Shown here: positions 9,884 through 60,796 of the stretch, in pieces | Position numbering within the stretch: position 1 is the first letter of the stretch | Layout of the letters: every line of letters begins with the position of its first letter | Source: a virus | Virus record (IMG/VR): IMGVR_UViG_3300025015_000010 | Span: 104,735 to 168,734 of that record | Direction: 5' to 3' (one strand) | DNA length: 64,000 nucleotides | Notes under the pieces: model-generated | The model's input: only the letters and a program-made list of their open reading frames with translations | What the model was told of the DNA's origin: nothing | Databases searched by the model: none | Made by a program: the position numbers and the translations under genes

Positions 9884-11029
9884 ATGTCTAAAGAACTGAT
9901 TACGCAGCTAGAAAGTCGGGTAGCTAGGGGGCTGATTAGTCGTAGAGATCGTGGACCGTTATCGATCTACAATTACACAGACACTTGTACATTTGATCGC
10001 GCCTGGGACGAGTACACGATGGCTGCTCGTGGCCTGATTGTTAACCAGGTAACTAAAAAGGTAGTGGCCAGGGGATTTAGTAAGTTTTTCAATTATGGTG
10101 AGAATCCCGATATCGATTATACAAATTTTGGTCAATTTGAAGTCACTGAGAAGCTTGACGGCAGTCTTGGCATTATGTATTGGGACGAGTTAACCCAAAT
10201 GTACCGGATTGCCACACGAGGCAGCTTCGAGAGTGATCAAGCCACCTGGGCAACGAATTGGTTGCACAAGGAATTTTCTAACAGAGTAGGCATTATTAAT
10301 GGCTTTGGTCAAGATCGAGGAATCACCCTAGTATTTGAGATCATTTATCCCGATAACCGTATTATCGTGGACTATCACGGTATTGAGGGGCTATTTTTGA
10401 TCGGTGTGATTGAAAATTCGACGGGACATTCCTTTGGCTATAATCGAGTAGTCAATTGGGGCGAAGATCACGGTTTTCAGGTAGTTAAATCGGTTCAAGT
10501 GACCAGTGTTCAAGAGCTTTTGGACTTAGCTTCTAAGCCTACAGGCAGGCCGACTGACGAGGAGGGTTGGGTGGTATTTTGGCCAAAAGCCCAATTGCGT
10601 GTTAAGATAAAGCGCGACGACTACATGCAACTGGCCAGGATTCTATCTAGGATGTCAGCCAGAGCAGTATTTGAGGCGGTTAGGGACGGTACTTTTGAGA
10701 ATATGATCAAGGATCTGCCCCCAGAGTTGGCTAATGTACCGAGATTGTTAGAAGACGAAGTCAGCGCGGCATTTGCAACTGTGCATGACAACGCTGTAGA
10801 CGCCCAGGATATTTTGTATGATCAGACAAAGAATAAACCTGAAATGTCCAGAAAGGACAAAGCACTGTTGATCCAAAGTGATTTACGGATTAAATGGTGC
10901 GCTTCGTACTTGTTTTCTATGCTGGATGGACAGGTTAATAATAAATGGCTGTGGAGTCAAGTTGAAGACAGGCTCAAAAAGATGGGCTATTTTATCCGCA
11001 GATTGCCTACCGAAGAGATTACGCCGTGA
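9884..11029 (+). CDS. T4 Rnl1-like RNA ligase
   Basis: ARGLI, KFFNYGE, TEKLDGSLG (motif I), ATRGSF, FEII, EGWVV, RVKIK. Confidence 0.9.
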   Translation: MSKELITQLESRVARGLISRRDRGPLSIYNYTDTCTFDRAWDEYTMAARGLIVNQVTKKVVARGFSKFFNYGENPDIDYTNFGQFEVTEKLDGSLGIMYWDELTQMYRIATRGSFESDQATWATNWLHKEFSNRVGIINGFGQDRGITLVFEIIYPDNRIIVDYHGIEGLFLIGVIENSTGHSFGYNRVVNWGEDHGFQVVKSVQVTSVQELLDLASKPTGRPTDEEGWVVFWPKAQLRVKIKRDDYMQLARILSRMSARAVFEAVRDGTFENMIKDLPPELANVPRLLEDEVSAAFATVHDNAVDAQDILYDQTKNKPEMSRKDKALLIQSDLRIKWCASYLFSMLDGQVNNKWLWSQVEDRLKKMGYFIRRLPTEEITP

Positions 11030-11187
11030 TTCGTCCAGGTAGCAAAGTAAAATACTTGCTAATTTCAGGTGAGCGCGGAGAAGGTACGGTTATCAAGCAC
11101 CAATACGGTAGTACGTGGTTTGTCACTAAGGAAAATGGCCAGACTGTTAGTATGCCAACTACGGCTTTTGAGGAGATTACGCCGTGA
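11026..11187 (+). CDS. 53-aa small beta-rich (SH3/KOW-like) protein not in the ORF track
   Basis: GTGA overlaps at both ends; MIRPGSKVKYLLISGERGEGTVIKHQYGSTWFVTKENGQTVSMPTTAFEEITP. Confidence 0.6.
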   Translation: MIRPGSKVKYLLISGERGEGTVIKHQYGSTWFVTKENGQTVSMPTTAFEEITP

Positions 11188-11911
11188 AATACCAGATATG
11201 GAAACGTTGGGAGTATGATCATGCAGATGATCCAACAGCTTGGAAGTTAGCTGATGACTATCAGTATTATACTTTAGAGCAAGCCAATGCAGAGGCACGT
11301 AATCTTAGACGTAGGTTGACTGGTCGTATAGTTGAAGTCAAGGAGCAGACTATGTCTAACGACCGTTTCATCGAAGCCTATGCACAACTACGCAGAAATC
11401 TTCGAGATTTGATGTTTAAAAATGGAGTTCAATCTAATCCAGGATTCGGAGACGATGAGATTGTTGCCTGTATGGCCGAAATTATTCGAAAAGCGGGTAA
11501 TCACAAGAAAGGAAAGTCATGAGATTTCTGTGCAGATATGCTATGCCAGGCTCGCCCAAGACCGAATGGGCAACTGTAAATTCAGACACAAAAGAATCAG
11601 CCGTGATGGATTTTCACCATGTATGTGATCGGGGCATGGTATATACTCACTACCTAAACGCTGAGAAGACTCGAAAAGAAAATATCACATTCGCCTGCGT
11701 AGCAGTGAAAGCAGAATTAGACCTAGGCGACGGTGAAGAGTTTATAGCCAGAAATTATTTTTCTAAGATATGGCGTAGCGGAGGCGTGAAGCGCCCAGAG
11801 CACGATGTTACTTTAGCAGAGATCACCGAGAAACTAGGCTACACGTTTGAGCCAGAAACACTCTTAGAGAAGGGCTGGGACGAAGAATCCGAATCTTGGG
11901 ACTAAAAGTTC

Positions 11912-11939
11912 TTGACTCCATAATAATTTATGGTATATT
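11912..11939 (+). promoter_or_regulatory. sigma70-like promoter giving a probably leaderless cca mRNA
   Basis: TTGACT-N16-TATATT with extended TG; ATG 6 nt downstream; no SD. Confidence 0.7.
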
Positions 11940-11945
11940 ACTCAT

Positions 11946-13196
11946 ATGACGACTAAGCTATATAAAGTTGGTGGAGCCGTACGGGATACGCTTCTCGGTA
12001 GAACGCCCAAGGACATCGACTATGTTCTTGTGGGCGCTACCTATGAGCAAGCCCAAGCTATGTATGGTGATCCCGTAGGAGCCACTTTCCCGGTATTTTT
12101 CGATGCCAATGGCAATGAAGTCGCTCTTGCTCGCAAGGAAACTAAGACCGGTGCAGGCCATACAGGATTTGTCTGCGACTTCGGGCCAGACGTAACGATT
12201 GAGCAAGATTTAGCTCGCCGTGACTTTACAATTAATGCTATTGCTATGGATTCGGACGGAAAGTACACCGACCCATTTGGCGGTATCAATGATCTGAAGG
12301 CTAAGGTGCTTCGTGCTGTGGGTCCAGCGTTCGCCGAAGATCCACTCCGTGTTTACAGGCTCGCTAGGTTTGCAGCTACGCTGGAATTTAGTATGGTTTA
12401 CGAGACGGCAGAAATGGCTAAATCCCTGGTTCAAGAAATCAGTTCACTGTCTGGCGAACGAGTTGCAGCCGAGATGCTCAAGACGTTTTTCAAGTCTGGT
12501 ATCAAGCCGTCCGTATTTTTCAGAACGCTGCTTGATCTTGGAGTTCTGCACGTGCATTTTCCCGAGGTTCAGGCCCTTGTAGATGTTCCGGCCGGGCCAA
12601 AGGTTCATCACCAAGAAGGTAGCGCGTTTGAGCACACAATGCTGGTTCTGGATGAGATTCAGTGCAGCGATCCAGTATCCAGGTTCGGCGCTTTGGTGCA
12701 TGATCTGGGTAAGGGAGTGACACCTAAGAGCGAACTTCCTAAGCACTACGGCCATGATTCCAGGGTTGAACTGGTTGACGCCCTGTGTGACCGGCTGAAG
12801 CTGCCTGCTGAGTATCTGCACTTTGGTCGTTTGGCCATGAGTCAGCACATGCGGGCACATGAAGTCAAGAAAATGTCCACGAAGAAGCTTGTGCAGTTTG
12901 TTCATCAGGTTTCTAAGCCTACCACGGACATGTACAGGCTGATTGAAATCGTGGAAGCTGATGGCCGTGGACGTCGGCCTAGTAGTGAGGATAAGACAAC
13001 TGGCGAGCATATCCTGAAGGTGTACGCAGCCATCAAGAGCGTGAAGCCAGTGGAAGTTATTCAGGCTGCTGAGAAGTCCAGAGCAGAACGCGCTGTCAGG
13101 ACCGGAATCAAGCCTGAAAAGCTTCTTGGTAAGCATATTGGTGAACTTATTTACATAGCGGAAATTCAGGCTGTCAATAAAGTACTGGAGGTTTGA
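11946..13196 (+). CDS. cca: CCA-adding tRNA nucleotidyltransferase with HD domain
   Basis: VGGAVRD, DIDYV, DLARRDFTINAIA, EDPLRVYR, HH.EG...EHT, HDLGKG. Confidence 0.92.
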   Translation: MTTKLYKVGGAVRDTLLGRTPKDIDYVLVGATYEQAQAMYGDPVGATFPVFFDANGNEVALARKETKTGAGHTGFVCDFGPDVTIEQDLARRDFTINAIAMDSDGKYTDPFGGINDLKAKVLRAVGPAFAEDPLRVYRLARFAATLEFSMVYETAEMAKSLVQEISSLSGERVAAEMLKTFFKSGIKPSVFFRTLLDLGVLHVHFPEVQALVDVPAGPKVHHQEGSAFEHTMLVLDEIQCSDPVSRFGALVHDLGKGVTPKSELPKHYGHDSRVELVDALCDRLKLPAEYLHFGRLAMSQHMRAHEVKKMSTKKLVQFVHQVSKPTTDMYRLIEIVEADGRGRRPSSEDKTTGEHILKVYAAIKSVKPVEVIQAAEKSRAERAVRTGIKPEKLLGKHIGELIYIAEIQAVNKVLEV

Positions 13197-39900: not shown

Positions 39901-41816
39901 TTCAATGGATAGCCGAGTCCGTCGAGTATGATAACATGTCTTATGCCATTCGGTGTGATATTGCCAAGTCAGAAACTAGAGTAAAGGTGTTAAGCAATGG
40001 CTAAGTCCAAGGTATCGAATTGTTGTTTTGAACTGCGACTGGGCTCTGATGAGTCTATGTCAAATGCCTGCTTGTTGATTAACAATCCAGCCTATGTAGA
40101 TAGCATCGAGGATGCCCTGGCTCATTTCGGTAATTGTCTCAAGACCGTGATTGAGCATGACGGTTTCTCTGGTAAAGATTGCTGTGGCGAAATAAAAAAG
40201 CGGGTTAAGGATAATTTCTGTTCGGTATGTGGGCGCAGATTTGAGTCCATGGACGTTTTTGATCAAGTTTGCAAACTAGTTCAATCTTTGTTTACATCTT
40301 CCAGCGTAGATTTAGGCCCCAACTGGGAGATTGTTATGCATAACGGCTGGGATGTTGGGGCACGGAATGTTTCTGGGAAAGACTGGGAAAATCGTAGAAT
40401 TGTTAGCAATGCCGATTTAGTGATAGCTTCGATTCTTGCAGATAGGCTGGATATCAAGGTAGACGATGTTGATTACCTGGATTCGGACATGAGAAAAGGA
40501 TGTATCGAGAGGGCTGGAGCGTGATGGAAACTCAAACGACTTATGCAGAGGTAACTAGGGATTATCCGAAGGCCGTGGACGCTATCATGGCCAAACTGCG
40601 TAGTGGCACATCAAAGGAGAAGTCTGCTAGTCCGGAAGACCTAGAATGGTCTTATAGTTACGGGATCGCAGTACAGTCGCAGTCATTTCAAGATATGTTG
40701 TCAAATATAGGTAAGCCTAGAGCACCGAAGAAGGTCACGCCCGAAGAGGCCGTAGACGCTATGGGCTTTGTTGTGTCGTTGCGAGGTAAGATTCGTCGTT
40801 GGTGGGCCTGGGAGGTGGTTACAGGTGTTCCTAAGGTCATTAGAGATTATCAGATTGGATTAGAGCGTAAGGCTAGAACAAAGCAAGCAACTTTTGATGC
40901 ATTGCCAGACAGCGAAAAGCAGAAACAAACCGACGACGTTATCAGTAAGCTTTTTGGCATGGGCGGATTTGCCGCTTTTAATATTGCTCCTGTGCCGTCT
41001 GTTAAGCAAAAATTAACTATCACGGTTCAGCCTAAGTTCAAGAAGAAATTTGATTTCGATGAGTAGTTAAATACAAAAGGAAGTGGTTATGCTAGTCCAG
41101 TCTCTGCGAGCCACCCAATTCGGAATTAGACTGGCAGCTTACATCGTCAGAGGCTAGGATAGCTGAAATGCTATTAGATACTACACGAAAATCGGAGGCT
41201 CGGTGTGCTGGAATGCGCATCTCGTGAAAAAGTCTTGCATATCGCAGCGGCGCTATGGAACTTCGAGCCCCCCCCTGTTAAAATGAGAACTTACTGGTGC
41301 GGAGAGGGTGTGTTTGATGAGCGATTTTGTACCAACCGAAGAATATAAGTCTCTTGTTAAGCAGATACTTGATGTCAAAAAAACACTGATTTGGACGTCA
41401 ATATTGGTGTATAGTTCTATCGCCAGCATGTTCGTATTTATGGCCTGGAGTAGGATTCAATGTCAGTGACCCACTGGAATTATCGTGTTATTAAGCGTAT
41501 CTACGATACAGGCGAAGCTTACGATATAGGTGAAGCTTACTACACAATTTGCGAAGTGTTCTACGACGAGGGCGGTAGTGTAAACCTGTATTCAGGACCG
41601 AAAAGCCCTCGTGGCGAGACACTCGATGATCTCAAAGAAAATCTATCATTTATGCAGATAGCTCTGAATAAACCTGTGTTAGATGAAAAGGACTTGACGG
41701 CATCCGATGAAAAGACAGCCTAAAGATATCTGGTCAGAAATCAAGTGGTATTACGGTAAGCGCATAGCGCTAGCCGTCTTGGTTATTTTTGCACTTGGAT
41801 TTATGGCAGGTAAAGC

Positions 41817-42236
41817 ATGCCAGTAATCTCATCAGGTGCGGTTGTAGTGTCTATATTTGAAGATAGCACGAAGGTGCTACTAGTGCATCCGTCTGGACAA
41901 AAACTGGCTAATGGTTCTTGGAGTATTCCTAAAGGTGAAGTTGAGTTAGCTGAAGACTATACGGTCACAGCGTTACGAGAAGTTAAAGAAGAGACTGGCC
42001 TAGACGTAAGTATAGTCTGCCCATTAGGTTCGATTACATACAAGAGTGGCAGAAAGATTGTGTTCGGTTTTTTGGCAACACCGATAGGCATAGTGAGTCA
42101 GGTAATGGAACCCCATTCTTGGGAAGTAGATCGTGTAGAATTTTTTTCAGTAGCCGAGGTCAAAAATCTAGTTCATAGGGATCAAGTCGGGTTGATAGAG
42201 CGAGCCTTGAAAAGCATAGGTAAAGCATGCCAGTAA
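41817..42236 (+). CDS. NUDIX hydrolase
   Basis: LLVHP, WSIPKGEVE..E....TALREVKEETG Nudix box. Confidence 0.9.
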   Translation: MPVISSGAVVVSIFEDSTKVLLVHPSGQKLANGSWSIPKGEVELAEDYTVTALREVKEETGLDVSIVCPLGSITYKSGRKIVFGFLATPIGIVSQVMEPHSWEVDRVEFFSVAEVKNLVHRDQVGLIERALKSIGKACQ

Positions 42237-43696
42237 ATTATACTATTCACACCGGCCATGTCCTGGATCAGATAAAGAAGTTAGCTTCTAGCAGTGTTCA
42301 TTGCGTTGTGACGAGTCCGCCCTATTGGGGTCTTAGAGATTACAAGACTGCACCCACAGTTTGGGACGGAAACATTCAATGCTCTCATCAATGGACTGAG
42401 TCACGTCCAGGCAGACGAGCCAATACAGATGCTGGTCTGGCCTTAACAGGCACAGGTAGTCAGGAATCTAGGCTACAGGGTTTGTGCGAAGCCGGAAGCG
42501 GTACTTCGAGTGCAGGCCAGTTTTGTTCTCTGTGCAGCGCCTGGCTAGGCAGTTTGGGCCAGGAACCGACACCGCAGTTGTATGTGCAGCATCTTGTTCA
42601 AGCATTCAAAGAAGTAAAGCGAGTACTCAGGGATGATGGCACTTTGTGGCTTAATTTGGGAGATACATTTTCTGTAGGACCATCAGGTAGGCGCGATCAT
42701 GGCGTTGAAGGCAGTGGGTCAAAATTAGGCCCTAGCCATGACGGTATTAAAGGCGGATCTGTTATTCAAGCTACAGGGAATAGGCGCTGTCCTGAAGGAC
42801 TGAAACCAAAAGACCTGTGTGGCATTCCATGGCACGTAGCTTTTGCACTCCAAGAAGACGGCTGGTATCTTCGCTCGGATATTATCTGGGCCAAAGGTGT
42901 ATCTGGTCAAAAGATTGTCGAGGCACAAGTATTAAAGGCGTTGCAAAATAATAGCATACCCGATGTCGTAATTGAGAATGTACTAAGAGATTTAGGATTG
43001 TATTCGGGTAATCCTATGCCTGAGTCTGTAACAGATCGGCCGACCAGGTCACACGAGTATGTGTTTTTGTTGGCCAAATCAAAAAAATATTTTTATGACC
43101 ACGAGGCAATCAAAGAGCCCACGGTTAGCGATCATAATAGTGGTAACGGCTTTAATCGCGAGGCAGGAGAATCTTATAAAAATACTGACGGTACTTTTAG
43201 AGGCAATAATAAACAGTGGGACGCTATTGGTACAACTCGAAATATACGGGATGTATGGGCATTAGTCACAAAGCCGCTAAAGCTGGCTCATTATGCCGCC
43301 TATCCCGTGGACCTGGTTGAGCCCTGTGTCCTGGCCGGAACCAGCGAGCACGGATGTTGTTCTGTCTGCGGTTCGCCCTATAAGCGCATACTAGAAAAGA
43401 CTGAAGCAGCAAATCCAGGCTATAATGGCTCAAAGTTTGATTCAGGTAAAACAGGCAGTCGGGATCGGGGTGAGCGTACTCAGCACGGTGACAGATTTGT
43501 TAAGACGACCGCTGGATGGCAAGTTACCTGTGGCTGCACAGGGGCGGACATAAGTCCCTGTACAGTTTTAGACCCATTTTGTGGAAGTGGTACGACTGGT
43601 ATAGTCACTTTGAAACATGGCAGAAAATTTATTGGTATAGAATTGAATCCAGAATATACTGAGATGGCCAAAATGAGAATCGAGTCAGGCAAATGA
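42227..43696 (+). CDS. DNA methyltransferase (N4-C/N6-A, beta class) with Cys-containing insertions
   Basis: VTSPPYW, LRDDGTLWLNLGD, LRSDIIW, PESVTDRPT.SHEY, VLDPFCGSGTTG, GIELN. Confidence 0.9.
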   Translation: MPVNYTIHTGHVLDQIKKLASSSVHCVVTSPPYWGLRDYKTAPTVWDGNIQCSHQWTESRPGRRANTDAGLALTGTGSQESRLQGLCEAGSGTSSAGQFCSLCSAWLGSLGQEPTPQLYVQHLVQAFKEVKRVLRDDGTLWLNLGDTFSVGPSGRRDHGVEGSGSKLGPSHDGIKGGSVIQATGNRRCPEGLKPKDLCGIPWHVAFALQEDGWYLRSDIIWAKGVSGQKIVEAQVLKALQNNSIPDVVIENVLRDLGLYSGNPMPESVTDRPTRSHEYVFLLAKSKKYFYDHEAIKEPTVSDHNSGNGFNREAGESYKNTDGTFRGNNKQWDAIGTTRNIRDVWALVTKPLKLAHYAAYPVDLVEPCVLAGTSEHGCCSVCGSPYKRILEKTEAANPGYNGSKFDSGKTGSRDRGERTQHGDRFVKTTAGWQVTCGCTGADISPCTVLDPFCGSGTTGIVTLKHGRKFIGIELNPEYTEMAKMRIESGK

Positions 43697-54955: not shown

Positions 54956-56160
54956 AGAGGTTAGTTAGAAAAACCAGGCATCTGTATCTGATAGGGCAGC
55001 GACACCAAAGATCGTCCCCAGCACGAAAAATATCACTAGAGTGATAGGTGCGAGTAGCCCTGCAACAATAGGTATGACTACTTGATGCCAGCGCTCTATG
55101 CCTATGTACACATGAGCACTTATTAGGCTTGCACTCGTTATTAGTAGGGCAATTACAATATAAGCCGTTAACATGTTATCCTCAAAAGTAGGATCGAAGA
55201 GAGACTTATGAAATTATATCTAGTAATTCTATGGCAAGTATAACTGATTGTGCGCGTTGATCTCCCTCAGATCGCTCATCTAGTACAGTCCTAGCCAGTA
55301 TTTCAGCCCTTTCTTTAATTTCACAGAGCTTCGTCATAAATTCTACGGATACTCCCATTTCTCCTTTACGAAGACTCACGACGAGCCCCCCCCCTGTCAG
55401 CCATATTCATACCCCCGGATCAATGATGTCAACTAAGGCTTTAAACTGTTCGATGTTACCAAGTTTAGGAAGTCCGTCATAGGTTCTAGGTACACTCCAC
55501 CCCAAGGCTGAGTCAAGGCGATCACAGAGAGAGTGTCTTGCAGCAATTAATGCACCATGCTTCTTAGTCATTTCAGCGTATTCGCGGTCTTTTTCCTGTA
55601 GATATTTTTCACATTCGGCCCACGGCATACGAATCAATGCAGTTGCAATTCGGTGTTCTCGGCAATCGTCATCGAGAACCGTCGTGTGCTTGTATATTTG
55701 AACAAAGACATCTCCACGAATGGGCGCTTGGGTAACAACAGCACGAGATACGTTCCATGTACCTGCTGAATTCCTTTCAGGAGTTGATTTCTTACCGTGC
55801 CATACCGCATAATCCTGGCCCACCTGAATATCACATGCACGCATTATTCACCTCCGTTGATGCTTATGATGTACTCTTTAGCCGCAGTAAAGGTCGAAAC
55901 TTGGTATTGATATTCTTGCCGTTGTGTCACAGGCAAATTAGTTGCATGGTCGGGTGTAATTAGCCACTTGCCGCGAAGGTAGTGTTCTACAGCATACCGT
56001 CTATCCGTATAAGAAACCCGGACCTCATACCAACCTTCGCGTCGTTTAATCGTTATGCTATTCATGTAGACATTATAGCATGTACCTTCTGGATGTCAAT
56101 AGGTAATTATGAGATTCTTTGGCCTGAGTTCACTGTTCTATACAAGAGTGAACTAGAATA

Positions 56161-56309: not shown

Positions 56310-56699
56310 TTATAGGTCTTCTGGCGGATACTTACGTTTGCCTGCTAGGTAGTCTAGAACATCTGTTCGGCCACTGAAATTGGCTTTAATAGTCTTAGAT
56401 CCAGCTATTTTTGCAGCAGCTAACCGATGATGGCCATCTGCTAAGACAGGACCGTATACTGTGCCATTACACACCTCGCAAGCAACTTCTATTGGATCTA
56501 ATGCGCGACCTCGCCTCGACTCTCTAACAAAAAACTTGATGCGCCCTATATGCCAATCAAGGTCTTCCTCGTACTCGGTGTATTTGGATCGAGTAGTTGC
56601 ATAAGACAAACCATCTCTGACATCTTCCTCAGGCAAATCTAGTGAAGTAAATGGGTTGTAAAATTCTAGCAATCTGTCTACTAAGATAGTTCTACTCAT
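56310..56699 (-). CDS. ParB/Srx-like domain protein
   Basis: DPIEV...LADGHHRLAAA. Confidence 0.7.
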   Translation of the reverse strand: MSRTILVDRLLEFYNPFTSLDLPEEDVRDGLSYATTRSKYTEYEEDLDWHIGRIKFFVRESRRGRALDPIEVACEVCNGTVYGPVLADGHHRLAAAKIAGSKTIKANFSGRTDVLDYLAGKRKYPPEDL

Positions 56700-56740
56700 T
56701 TATGTGCCTACTTTAGGCCAAGCGATTTCGGATAAACCAG

Positions 56741-57338
56741 CGGGTCTTGATCTATTACTGTTATCTACTCCCCTAGCTACGCCATCCACCTCGTTCCATT
56801 CTCTGCCCAATTATTTGATCTATTACTATGTCTCGCTGGAGAAGGACTACTCGGCCAACGCCTTGGGTTCTATTCCCTACCTAGCTATTGATCTACTGCT
56901 ACCCCAGCATTCGTCCACTATGGGGGCTACCATGACACTATTCCATTCTCTGCCTAGCTCTTAATCTATTGCTACCATCGAACGCACCGTACTCTTCAAG
57001 CACGGTGGGATATTCCATTCTCTGCCTAGCTCTTAATCTATTGCTACGCCTGCTGTACGCGGCAGATGTGGTTGTCCGCCTCATTCCATTCTCTGCCTGA
57101 GTCTTGATCTATTACTGCGCAAGAAGACACCGGGGCGGATAATATTGCTGTAATCGTTCCATTCTCTGCCCGAGTCTTGATCTATTACTGCGTCAACGTG
57201 GGAGGGAAGAAATAATGGCACTCCATGCGTTCCATTCTCTGCCCGAGTCTTGATCTATTACTGCGGCCCCGGAACAAGCGATCAGTATCTGGCCGGTCGA
57301 GAGTTCCATTCTCTGCCCGAGTCTTGATCTATTACTGC
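56741..57338 (-). CRISPR. CRISPR array: 8 full repeats + 1 partial, 8 spacers
   Basis: 36-nt repeat, minus-strand consensus GCAGTAATAGATCAAGACTCGGGCAGAGAATGGAAC; plus-strand starts at 57303, 57229, 57156, 57083, 57012, 56940, 56867, 56793 (37 nt) and partial 56741; spacers 38, 37, 37, 35, 36, 37, 37, 31 nt; degeneration increases away from the cas gene. Confidence 0.97.
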
Positions 57339-59028: not shown

Positions 59029-59547
59029 CTACCTCCGGTTCACCACTTGAAATGTCTCTCCACAATTAGGACAGTGAACCTTAAAACTATTAGTAACAAT
59101 CCGTTTTTCTAGTGGTTGCTCAGTTGGGGCAAGCGCTGGCAGAAATACATCATCCAGTTCTCTGGGCTTCATATCAATAGGCTTCACTTTTACATTTGCA
59201 TATTCCCCATTACTAGTGGGGCGTCGCACTTGGTACTCCTGGTCTAATACTGCGTCGCTTACGCCCCCGCGTAACATTCGGCCTACGGCTCTTAACGCAC
59301 GGTCAGGCGAGCCCCAGGCGAGAGATGCAAACCGAGGATTAGCCGCGAGAGAGATAAGACGATCTGCACGAGATCTAGTTAAGCCAATTTCCTTGAGAAA
59401 ACGGTCATAAATTGGCAGAACTTGCTGTTGCACTCGACCCAGTAACTTCCCATATGCAATAAGATCCGTTGTGAGATTTACATTCAATGTTTGCCATGCG
59501 GCTAATGCCTCTTCTAAACTGAGATTACTTTCTTTGACTGTGCTCAT
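59029..59547 (-). CDS. DUF3102-like helical/HTH protein with C-terminal CxxC knuckle, coupled to the cas12-like gene
   Basis: LIAYGKLL..V......YDRFLKEIGLTRSRADRLISLA; VHCPNCGETF; stop 2 nt before the next ATG. Confidence 0.6.
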   Translation of the reverse strand: MSTVKESNLSLEEALAAWQTLNVNLTTDLIAYGKLLGRVQQQVLPIYDRFLKEIGLTRSRADRLISLAANPRFASLAWGSPDRALRAVGRMLRGGVSDAVLDQEYQVRRPTSNGEYANVKVKPIDMKPRELDDVFLPALAPTEQPLEKRIVTNSFKVHCPNCGETFQVVNRR

Positions 59548-59582
59548 GTCCGCTCGCTTTCTGCCATTGAGGCATAAAATAT

Positions 59583-59745
59583 ATAACTGGCCCGGAAAAC
59601 TGCTTGCTCGTGACACTGTCTCGGCAGCGAGCATAGATACGGGTCGTGAGTGCCGTTATCCGCTGAGCGTAACCAGATCGGTCCAGCGGCACCCCGGCTC
59701 ACGCGGTGGAACGCCGCGCATTTTTGTTCTTTCCGGGCCAGTTAT
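59583..59745 (-). ncRNA. 163-nt structured RNA (candidate tracr/scaffold RNA)
   Basis: 16-bp perfect closing stem 59583-59598/59730-59745; internal stems tgctcg/cgagca, gtgag/ctcac, ccgctg/cagcgg, cgcgg/ccgcg; starts at the predicted TSS. Confidence 0.65.
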
Positions 59746-59754
59746 CTGCTAACT

Positions 59755-59783
59755 AGCATACACCTACCAAACAACAAAGTCAA
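59755..59783 (-). promoter_or_regulatory. sigma70-like promoter of the ncRNA-DUF3102-cas12-array unit
   Basis: TTGACT-N17-TATGCT. Confidence 0.8.
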
Positions 59784-60796
59784 CAACTTTCTTTTGACAA
59801 AATCCAACCAGCTTTTATCATATCAGCCAACACGGCATAACAGACGTAAGCCCGGCCTGTACGAGACAGAGCATGAAACCTGTAATCAGTCACTAAAGCA
59901 TCATACATATCTCGCTGACTTTCAGGCAGGCTGTCTCTGGCCGCTTGAAACTTTGATGCCTTCTGTACAACTGGCTCGACTTCAAATGTCTTCACAGTCT
60001 TGGGCTCTTTTTGATGACTTATCCTTACTTCTGGAAAATACTTATACTTTTTTCTGAGTTTTAGTGGCGGAATAACTATGCCTGTCTTGATACAGTAGCT
60101 CCGTAAACGTGCGACCGACTCTCCAACCTCTCTGGCCACGTGGGCGACGGGCTTATTCCAGAGTAAATCTGTTAGTACCTCTCTATCTGGCCAGGCGCCC
60201 TCCTCCAAAGTTGTCAGCCATCGTGTTTGGCGCGATGCTATAGGAATATCCGAGGTGTGACAGTAACTTTTCAAGGTATTTATTGATATGCCGAGAGACT
60301 TTGCTACGTGCTTGGGCGACCGCTCTTGAAGCATCTTTGTCAGAGTAGACGCCTCGGGCCATTCTATTTTTACCCTGTTCCAGTGCTCAATACCAGCTAG
60401 CGTTATTCGCTTTTCGCTCTTAGAATTAGGCGAGGCGACCTTGGGCTTCTTGTCTCGTTTCTTCGCGCTTGGCTTACGCTCTTGTTCAACCTTTCTTGCA
60501 TAGGGCGTGGCTAGAACCAAGTTACCAATATCGATATTTGTCTTATTACGGTCTATATAGCTGACGTTCTCGTCTCTACTCAAATACCTGCCTATGTCAT
60601 TTTCCATCACAAGTACGGCCCAGTAAACCATACCAGAGTTATCAAGGGCTCGCGGATGTTCTGGATAATATGCCGCTATCGAGCCCTTAAATTTTTCAGG
60701 CTTTAACTTCGACAAGTCATGTACAGTTAGGTCGGTTTCGCTGACATACTCCCCGGAATAAATTCCGGGGCTTGCGGTCGCTGGTCCCATCGTCAT
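59780..60796 (-). CDS. Degenerate HNH-like N-terminus plus repeated HTH motifs
   Basis: HPRA..GMVY..VLVME..IGRYL...ENV.YIDRNK.N...NL; VAKSLGISINTL; VAREVGES; true start uncertain. Confidence 0.55.
   Translation of the reverse strand: MTMGPATASPGIYSGEYVSETDLTVHDLSKLKPEKFKGSIAAYYPEHPRALDNSGMVYWAVLVMENDIGRYLSRDENVSYIDRNKTNIDIGNLVLATPYARKVEQERKPSAKKRDKKPKVASPNSKSEKRITLAGIEHWNRVKIEWPEASTLTKMLQERSPKHVAKSLGISINTLKSYCHTSDIPIASRQTRWLTTLEEGAWPDREVLTDLLWNKPVAHVAREVGESVARLRSYCIKTGIVIPPLKLRKKYKYFPEVRISHQKEPKTVKTFEVEPVVQKASKFQAARDSLPESQRDMYDALVTDYRFHALSRTGRAYVCYAVLADMIKAGWILSKESC
60742..60795 (-). mobile_element. IS200/IS605-type right-end remnant
   Basis: CAAGCCCCGGAATTTATTCCGGGGAGTATGTCA: hairpin followed by GTCA; 30-nt arm identical to the 49221 palindrome. 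Confidence 0.6.

Follow-up and report, generated by a model that had tools for sequence, protein, structure and literature searches.

In a large, soil-type phage, one spacer of a small CRISPR array matches the junction between the mod and res genes of a type III restriction-modification (R-M) operon. The explanation that we favor, and to which we give about an even chance of being correct, is that the array supplies foreign-derived guides to a type V-like unit that is phage-borne and has no leader, and that at least one of these guides is aimed at a type III R-M cassette. If so, minus-strand transcription would run on from the adjacent Cas12/TnpB-like gene through the eight spacers, and the guide from spacer 7 would direct the effector to the point at which mod ends and res begins. 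The most likely action would be RNA-guided recognition of the cassette DNA, which would be bound or cut beside a TTG in the non-target strand; in the infected cell the restriction system, or a rival element bearing it, would be disabled or removed. Phage-borne CRISPR systems attack rival phages and, in the case of ICP1, a host defence island; to our knowledge, no guide has previously been described that is directed against the mod/res junction in an R-M cassette. If functional, the unit would amount to a programmable anti-restriction device from an effector family with two known members.

The phage genome and its CRISPR array

The stretch of DNA that we analysed (the window, 64 kb, 45.0% GC) is the final part of an IMG/VR virus record of 168,734 bp that has a GC content of 44.4% and an estimated completeness of 77%. 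The record codes for PolA, a class II ribonucleotide reductase, helicases, a Ro60/TROVE protein, DNA methylases and copies of TnpB. No PolA from a cultured phage was more than 30% identical to that of the record, which is without a close cultured relative, and a pattern search of 185,579 species genomes returned no relatives of the phage TnpB. No tRNAs were found in the 64-kb window, and neither cas1 nor cas2 was found in the 168.7-kb record (77% complete). A Ro60/TROVE-vWA protein and a full-length IS605-type TnpB lie at positions 41664–43313 (L012) and 83428–84663 (L014) of the phage genome.

The array occupies positions 56727–57338 of the window, is read here on the minus strand, and consists of nine repeats of 36–37 nt and eight unique spacers of 30–38 nt with a period of 71–74. 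The features by which a CRISPR array is recognized are all present, namely at least three near-identical direct repeats of a length within 23–47 nt, unique spacers of similar length, an adjacent cas-like gene, and a spacer with a foreign match; the coordinates given for the array and its spacers in the initial annotation of this DNA held on re-checking. Closest to the effector gene, at the high-coordinate end, three repeats share one sequence, and the next carries two changes; more distal repeats carry 8–11 changes or an insertion, and the terminal repeat (56727–56762) retains, in the minus orientation, its first 20 nt alone. An independent ENA contig (L003) contains an array that is base-for-base identical. 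Logan contigs from three runs end at the first repeat, as would be expected because there a 36-nt repeat meets a short-k assembler. No hairpin was found in the repeat, and the work on the effector and the repeat gave no match to Rfam at the gathering level.

The array is probably transcribed from the minus strand, as the initial annotation had presupposed, and several features agree in pointing this way. In particular, minus-strand transcription is favored because the effector gene runs into the array (its stop codon falls within the first repeat), because the gradient of repeat degeneracy points away from that gene, because the terminal repeat loses its 3′ part when read in the minus orientation, and because we found no plus-strand promoter at the low-coordinate end of the array. 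The same features speak against an array transcribed from the plus strand, the guides of which would be sense in sequence and would base-pair with the template strand of the DNA. We consider such an arrangement, the opposite of what the initial annotation had assumed, to be quite improbable.

A TnpB/Cas12-like gene runs into the array

The gene adjoining the array (P0005; 57332–59026, minus strand) encodes an orphan TnpB/Cas12-like protein of 564 amino acids with a C-terminal CxxC...CxxC motif (CPEC...CPKC). No match to the protein was found in Pfam, NCBIfam or PHROGs. However, comparison with the phage's own TnpB by hhalign gave an E value of 1.7e-5 over 210 columns, and in the ESM Atlas the protein had a feature score of 0.97 and a structure TM of 0.59–0.64 to PF07282 clusters. 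PADLOC returned a marginal match to Cas12f (E 7e-4), and the only match in the PDB was to Cas12g, again marginal (E 0.0075–0.012) and over the C-terminal zinc-finger/RuvC end only. (Note that the AlphaFold models of the protein are of low confidence, with a pLDDT of 35.0 from a single sequence and 35.7 from a two-sequence alignment.) Taken together, the sequence and ESM Atlas comparisons indicate that the effector is akin to TnpB and Cas12, with the split RuvC and C-terminal zinc finger by which a type V protein is recognized.

The effector appears to lack an intact D-E-D RuvC triad. The RuvC-I aspartate is kept, as D321 (PDIYPY, within residues 318–330) aligns with the aspartate of the GIDLG motif in the phage TnpB and is conserved in the sole homologue that we found. 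The position of the RuvC-II glutamate is occupied by a histidine (His400; FHDPG, within residues 396–405) in both members of the family. At the position of the RuvC-III aspartate the effector has threonine and the homologue alanine, and the neighbouring residue is acidic. As judged from these alignments, the RuvC site is non-canonical and remodelled, without being plainly inactivated at each of its three positions, and cutting by the effector is doubtful because the catalytic glutamate of RuvC-II is replaced by histidine.

Among 1.84 billion representative proteins there was a single homologue of the effector, so that the family has two members; no further member was found in IMG/VR. The homologue (532 amino acids, 38% identical over 515) is encoded at positions 1328–2926 of contig JBFOMP010006439.1 of GCA_040960175.1 (L002), a 7.4-kb contig of 55.8% GC that contains small unannotated open reading frames (ORFs) and almost no non-coding DNA. 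No repeat array was found around the homologue on this 7.4-kb contig, and the effector family is therefore not always linked to an array.

The array is identical across samples, cas1 and cas2 were not found in the record, and the homologue's contig is arrayless; each of these observations fits a frozen array and counts against the explanation that we favor. These three findings also speak for a relic, as do the degeneracy of five of the nine repeats and the failure to find the repeat anywhere else in IMG/VR. Under this alternative the effector and the array would have been captured together from a bacterial or plasmid donor, and the spacers would record past invaders of that donor and be of little present use to the phage. 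We think this unlikely, although not negligibly so. The ORF of the effector is intact and conserved (at 38% identity over 515 amino acids with the homologue), the four gene-proximal repeats are perfect or nearly so, and the 3′ 14 nt of the repeat are unaltered in five of the eight full repeats and differ by one base in two more. Moreover, the phage with its CRISPR locus is present on at least 17 contigs.

The spacers are richer in GC than the phage

On the minus strand, the oldest spacer is spacer 1 (56763–56792; 30 nt, 57% GC), the flanking repeats of which are degenerate. Spacers 2 (56830–56866; 37 nt, 62% GC), 3 (56903–56939; 37 nt, 57% GC), 4 (56976–57011; 36 nt, 56% GC), 5 (57048–57082; 35 nt, 66% GC) and 6 (57119–57155; 37 nt, 49% GC) lie between it and spacer 7 (57192–57228; 37 nt), and spacer 8 (57265–57302; 38 nt, 63% GC) adjoins the stop codon of the effector gene.

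The initial annotation had placed the seven full-length spacers at ~49–66% GC, above the surrounding genome, and had seen no match to them within the window. Both observations are borne out. The pooled GC content of the spacers is 57.5%, compared with 44.4 ± 2.9% in equal-sized random draws from the phage (z = 4.5), and none of 50,000 random draws of equal-sized phage fragments reached a GC content as high as that of the spacers. Apart from one 15-nt match at chance level, no spacer matches the phage, either in the window or across the whole of the record. The base composition argues firmly that the spacers were captured from foreign DNA of ~57% GC, whether bacterial or belonging to a mobile element, rather than from the phage with its 44% GC. 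Consistent with this, the contigs that resemble the one target found have a GC content of 55–58%, similar to that of the spacers; with the GC excess and the lack of self-matches, this supports the suggestion in the initial annotation that the spacers stem from a GC-richer host or competing element.

The single self-match involves positions 22–36 of spacer 6 (57140–57154), which are identical to positions 100007–100021 of the phage genome (L007), in an unusually GC-rich (54%) segment of the phage AAA-ATPase gene; about 0.06 such matches would be expected by chance.

Spacer 7 matches the mod/res junction of a type III R-M operon

To search for protospacers we used exact IUPAC patterns, with pairs of spacers merged into two-fold degenerate patterns. 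In the JGI metagenomes, where the scans covered spacers 5 to 8, the merged pattern of spacers 6 and 7 matched one contig, Ga0134088_10058907 (L015, 1772 bp), and did so through spacer 7; that scan gave no target for spacer 6, and the merged pattern of spacers 5 and 8 gave no match. Spacer 7 and positions 1544–1580 of the contig (plus strand) are identical at 36 of 37 bases, and the 35-nt exact run that they share has a chance expectation of ~1e-9 in a collection of this size. Two further loci match spacer 7, one at 34 of 37 bases (L025/L026) and the other at 29 of 37 bases (L024/L027).

The protospacer covers the end of mod, the Shine-Dalgarno sequence and the start of res in a type III R-M operon. 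On the matched contig, the upstream frame encodes an N6_N4 DNA methylase with the C-terminus ...VEVNVGGKK-stop, and the TAA of this frame overlaps the ATG of the next gene, the product of which begins MALHPNFPESPY. This N-terminus recurs, with 85–93% identity, at the beginning of 3594 proteins, which when full-length have ~900 residues; most of the homologues listed contain PF04851 (ResIII), and in their sources many go by the name of type III restriction enzyme. Furthermore, PADLOC run on the full-length homologous neighbours identified MTase_III (1.5e-98) and REase_III (1.3e-21). The match and its gene context confirm what had been read from spacer 7 in the initial annotation, namely a TAATG gene junction with a ribosome-binding site of the GGAGG type. 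We also asked whether the N6_N4 methylase of the phage itself is related to the target Mod and discarded the idea, the SAM-binding motif being all that the two have in common.

The protospacer also gives the strand of spacer 7, the plus text of which is the sense strand of both mod and res. A crRNA transcribed from the minus strand would therefore be antisense and would cover the Shine-Dalgarno sequence, the mod stop codon and the res start codon. Beyond the protospacer, all three direct mod-res junctions continue with CAACTT, so that the flank on the crRNA-like strand reads ...AAGTTG and places a TTG immediately 5′ of the protospacer at three junction loci, which we count as one homologous site (n = 1). 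This TTG may be the protospacer-adjacent motif (PAM), located on the non-target strand.

The sole mismatch of spacer 7 falls, in the minus orientation, at position 2 of the guide. This position is proximal to the seed, where Cas12 enzymes are usually intolerant of mismatches, and the mismatch thus stands against the explanation that we favor. Where spacer 7 reads CATGC, all of the res homologues have CAT CCC, and the strain from which spacer 7 actually came may simply differ in sequence from the matched contigs. A plus-strand array would accommodate the mismatch better, at guide position 36 of 37, a distal position at which it would be tolerated. However, the 5′ flank of the protospacer would then be GAG and not T-rich.

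On the matched contig, the methylase frame at positions 1–1567 is split across three frames (1–258, 225–1028 and 908–1567), which reflects either an assembly error in a short, low-coverage contig or decay of the mod gene.

No target was found for the other seven spacers in the collections, and at the stringency, that we could use. Exact IUPAC scans of IMG/VR with the merged pairs 2+3, 4+7, 5+8 and 1+5, and hence with spacers 1–5, 7 and 8, gave no matches, and the GenBank phage and PLSDB plasmid collections likewise gave none when searched by blastn with the entire array as query. A pattern for spacer 2 that tolerated synonymous changes had no match in the 185,579 species genomes, and a protein search with a chance ORF in which the spacer 2 peptide is in frame (56704–56961) was without a match. 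When the seven spacers were compared with all of the R-M loci that we had fetched, at both the nucleotide and the peptide level, only chance-level matches were obtained. The one spacer of the eight for which a target was found is also the one for which a match was most to be expected, because its target is highly conserved and widespread (as its 3594 homologues attest), and the link of spacer 7 to a defence system may be an effect of ascertainment.

The matching cassette occurs on plasmid-like DNA

The closest full-length res genes are on chromosomal-looking contigs of 54–58% GC. One of the neighbours there, RimO, shares a cluster at 90% or more with a protein that bears the label Terriglobia bacterium, and other neighbours cluster with Anaerolineales. 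At these chromosomal-type loci, cargo genes lie between mod and res, and only the first 22 nt of spacer 7 match. The cargo, seen at L016 9277–10000, L019 8328–9988, L021 2210–4000 and L023 upstream of 3577, includes a PDDEXK_3 gene, an HTH/M78 peptidase with DUF4411, and an MNT/HepT toxin–antitoxin pair. At these loci the interval between mod and res looks like an insertion hot-spot within the operon, with the end of mod and the start of res conserved on either side.

The loci at which mod and res adjoin directly have a different setting. A direct-junction contig with the 34/37 match encodes ParA, a Gp49-type toxin, a resolvase and a D5-type primase, and one with the 29/37 match encodes a relaxase, the TrwB coupling protein, a Toprim primase, ParE and a transposase. 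By gene content, then, the version of the cassette that fits spacer 7 is seen on DNA that appears plasmid-like or conjugative-element-like. On the plasmid-like contig L026 (34/37), res is called at 10001–12718 as four pieces of 198, 452, 63 and 173 amino acids, which may represent either a broken gene or frameshift errors in long reads.

These settings bear on what the phage might gain. Against a simple anti-restriction role, silencing or cutting res after entry leaves in place the restriction enzyme that is already in the cell. The contexts in which we see the matching junction would fit the targeting of a rival, whether a plasmid or an integrative element, that bears the cassette.

The strand of the other spacers

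The initial annotation had proposed that every spacer reads as coding sequence on the plus strand, so that all of the crRNAs would be antisense to their target mRNAs. The eight plus-strand peptides quoted there are correct, including VNVGGKK-stop followed by ATG in spacer 7, and so is the observation that all 12 codons of VSLEKDYSANAL (spacer 2, plus frame 0) have G or C in the third position. What does not stand is the information on strand that was drawn from the peptides. Across the eight spacers, 19 of 24 frames are open on the plus strand versus 17 of 24 on the minus strand, no spacer lacks an open frame on either strand, and the quoted frame of spacer 7 includes a stop. In composition-matched shuffles, all eight spacers were open on a given strand in 80% of sets, and 19 or more frames were open in 10% of sets. 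Open frames are uninformative about strand here because in most shuffled sets all eight spacers are open as well, and a general caution follows, that ORFs in 35-nt spacers do not show strand.

A stricter test that uses the spacer sequences alone asks which codon phase has the highest GC content. Strong third-position GC periodicity was found only in spacer 1 (9 of 10 codons) and spacer 2 (12 of 12), in both cases in plus frame 0, and in both spacers the plus frame is open and the corresponding minus frame closed. We also used a strand classifier in which codon-usage tables were derived from the called genes of target-like contigs, and the likelihoods of plus and minus were each summed over frames. 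On held-out 37-nt windows it was correct in 79% of cases when trained on L016/L017 and in 82% when trained on L020/L021/L023; it assumes that all of the spacers derive from coding DNA of similar codon usage. The calibrated probability that the plus text is the sense strand came to 0.96–0.98 for spacer 2, 0.80–0.86 for spacer 5, 0.80–0.81 for spacer 1 and 0.72–0.81 for spacer 8. Spacers 3 (0.44–0.51) and 6 (0.43–0.56) were uninformative, and spacer 4 (0.20–0.24) leans towards the minus strand as sense. Thus, four of the seven unmatched spacers lean plus, two are uninformative and one leans minus. The Bayes factor for all-plus versus random strands was 2.9–3.5, or ~6–7 with spacer 7 added, and the summed strand score was equalled by 11–12% of random-strand sets (p ~0.11). 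For spacer 7 the plus text is established as sense; for the other seven spacers codon usage gives a weak lean in the same direction, which we do not treat as a feature of design. The antisense reading put forward in the initial annotation would accordingly hold for spacer 7, given minus-strand transcription, whereas a uniform bias across the array is no more than possible: the open-frame evidence is void and the codon test leaves spacer 4 on the opposite side.

These results bear on an alternative, along the lines of the initial annotation, in which all of the guides are deliberately antisense and the effector acts without cutting DNA, either on RNA (by recognition of the kind seen with Cas12g or by occlusion of ribosome-binding sites) or as a strand-specific block to transcription, with res and further genes of hosts or rivals turned off. 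We give this perhaps half the credence of the explanation set out at the beginning. In its favor, spacer 7 is antisense and lies over the Shine-Dalgarno sequence and start codon of res as well as the stop codon of mod, four of the other seven spacers lean likewise (with a Bayes factor of ~3 to 7), the sole sequence match in the PDB is to the RNA-targeting Cas12g, and the RuvC-II glutamate is replaced in both members of the family. In addition, a block at the mod/res junction would be expected to remove restriction yet spare methylation. On the other hand, the open-frame argument falls away, spacer 4 points the other way and two spacers say nothing, and the Cas12g match is marginal and confined to the zinc-finger/RuvC end. 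The conserved TTG flank, too, suits recognition of DNA, though it comes from a single family of loci.

Relation to known CRISPR systems of phages and plasmids

The Vibrio phage ICP1 is reported to encode a type I-F CRISPR–Cas system that targets PLE, an anti-phage island of its host. The present unit resembles that of ICP1 in that a phage-encoded CRISPR array has a spacer matching a host-resident defence element, here in the case of one spacer (spacer 7) only. Unlike ICP1, whose type I-F system is complete and multi-subunit, includes adaptation genes and gains new spacers, the phage studied here has an orphan Cas12/TnpB-like protein and a fixed array, with no Cas1 or Cas2 in the 168.7-kb record that would complete an adaptation module; and whereas the ICP1 target is a satellite, the target here is a type III R-M cassette.

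Huge phages are also said to carry compact type V systems (Cas12j/CasΦ and Cas-λ) that have no adaptation modules. As in the present case, a large phage has a single small Cas12-type effector beside a short array, no cas1 or cas2, and spacers aimed at other genetic elements or host genes. However, the present effector gave no sequence match in Pfam, NCBIfam, PHROGs or PADLOC beyond the marginal one to Cas12f, and it belongs to a family of two members in which the RuvC-II glutamate has become histidine.

Cas12g (type V-G) is an RNA-guided RNase that uses a tracrRNA. It is the only protein of solved structure to which the effector has a sequence match (E 0.0075, in the C-terminal RuvC/zinc-finger region), and an antisense guide would suit RNA targeting. 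Yet the match is marginal, and the RuvC-III aspartate of Cas12g aligns with the threonine of the effector, next to a glutamate. Moreover, no anti-repeat or tracrRNA candidate above chance was found between positions 55000 and 61500, where the best duplex with the repeat had an energy of −29.7 kcal/mol compared with a mean of −29.5 for shuffled repeats. This result, like the lack of a hairpin in the repeat, also counts against the explanation that we favor.

As described in a 2024 review of CRISPR in mobile elements, Cas12m (type V-M; Wu et al. 2022) is nuclease-deficient, binds DNA and blocks transcription (PMC11656645). Like Cas12m, the effector described here is small, of Cas12 type and encoded by a mobile element, its RuvC site is doubtful, and silencing rather than cutting is a plausible action; it has, however, no detectable sequence kinship with Cas12m, which occurs mainly on plasmids and is aimed at plasmid genes. 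The same review covers the ICP1 CRISPR system and PLE in general terms, along with mini-arrays directed against related viruses and the nuclease-deficient Cas12m of plasmids; the word "restriction" is absent from it, and restriction systems are not mentioned as targets (PMC11656645). A bolder version of the silencing idea, which we hold to be a long shot of about the same standing as the relic, is that a catalytically remodelled Cas12/TnpB-like protein with antisense guides forms a natural CRISPR-interference device against the defence genes of hosts or plasmids, turning restriction off while the methylase stays on. If this were true, the unit would exert RNA-guided anti-restriction, with the guide from spacer 7 lying over the ribosome-binding site and start codon of res. 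The match of spacer 7 gives an orphan Cas12-like protein a concrete target, with one 37-nt site, a candidate TTG PAM, and loss of restriction as the read-out.

Genes flanking the unit

Immediately upstream of the effector gene, and abutting it, is an ORF of 201 amino acids (59029–59634, minus strand) that has a CxxC motif at its end and for which no family match was found. Directly downstream of the array, an ORF of 129 amino acids (56310–56699, minus strand) gave no family match above threshold and contains a DGHHR motif typical of ParB/sulfiredoxin-type N-terminal domains. Upstream of the unit, an ORF of 338 amino acids (59780–60796, minus strand) has weak matches to helix-turn-helix families (RWP-RK and HTH_17) and matches HNH endonuclease PHROGs (E 1e-7).
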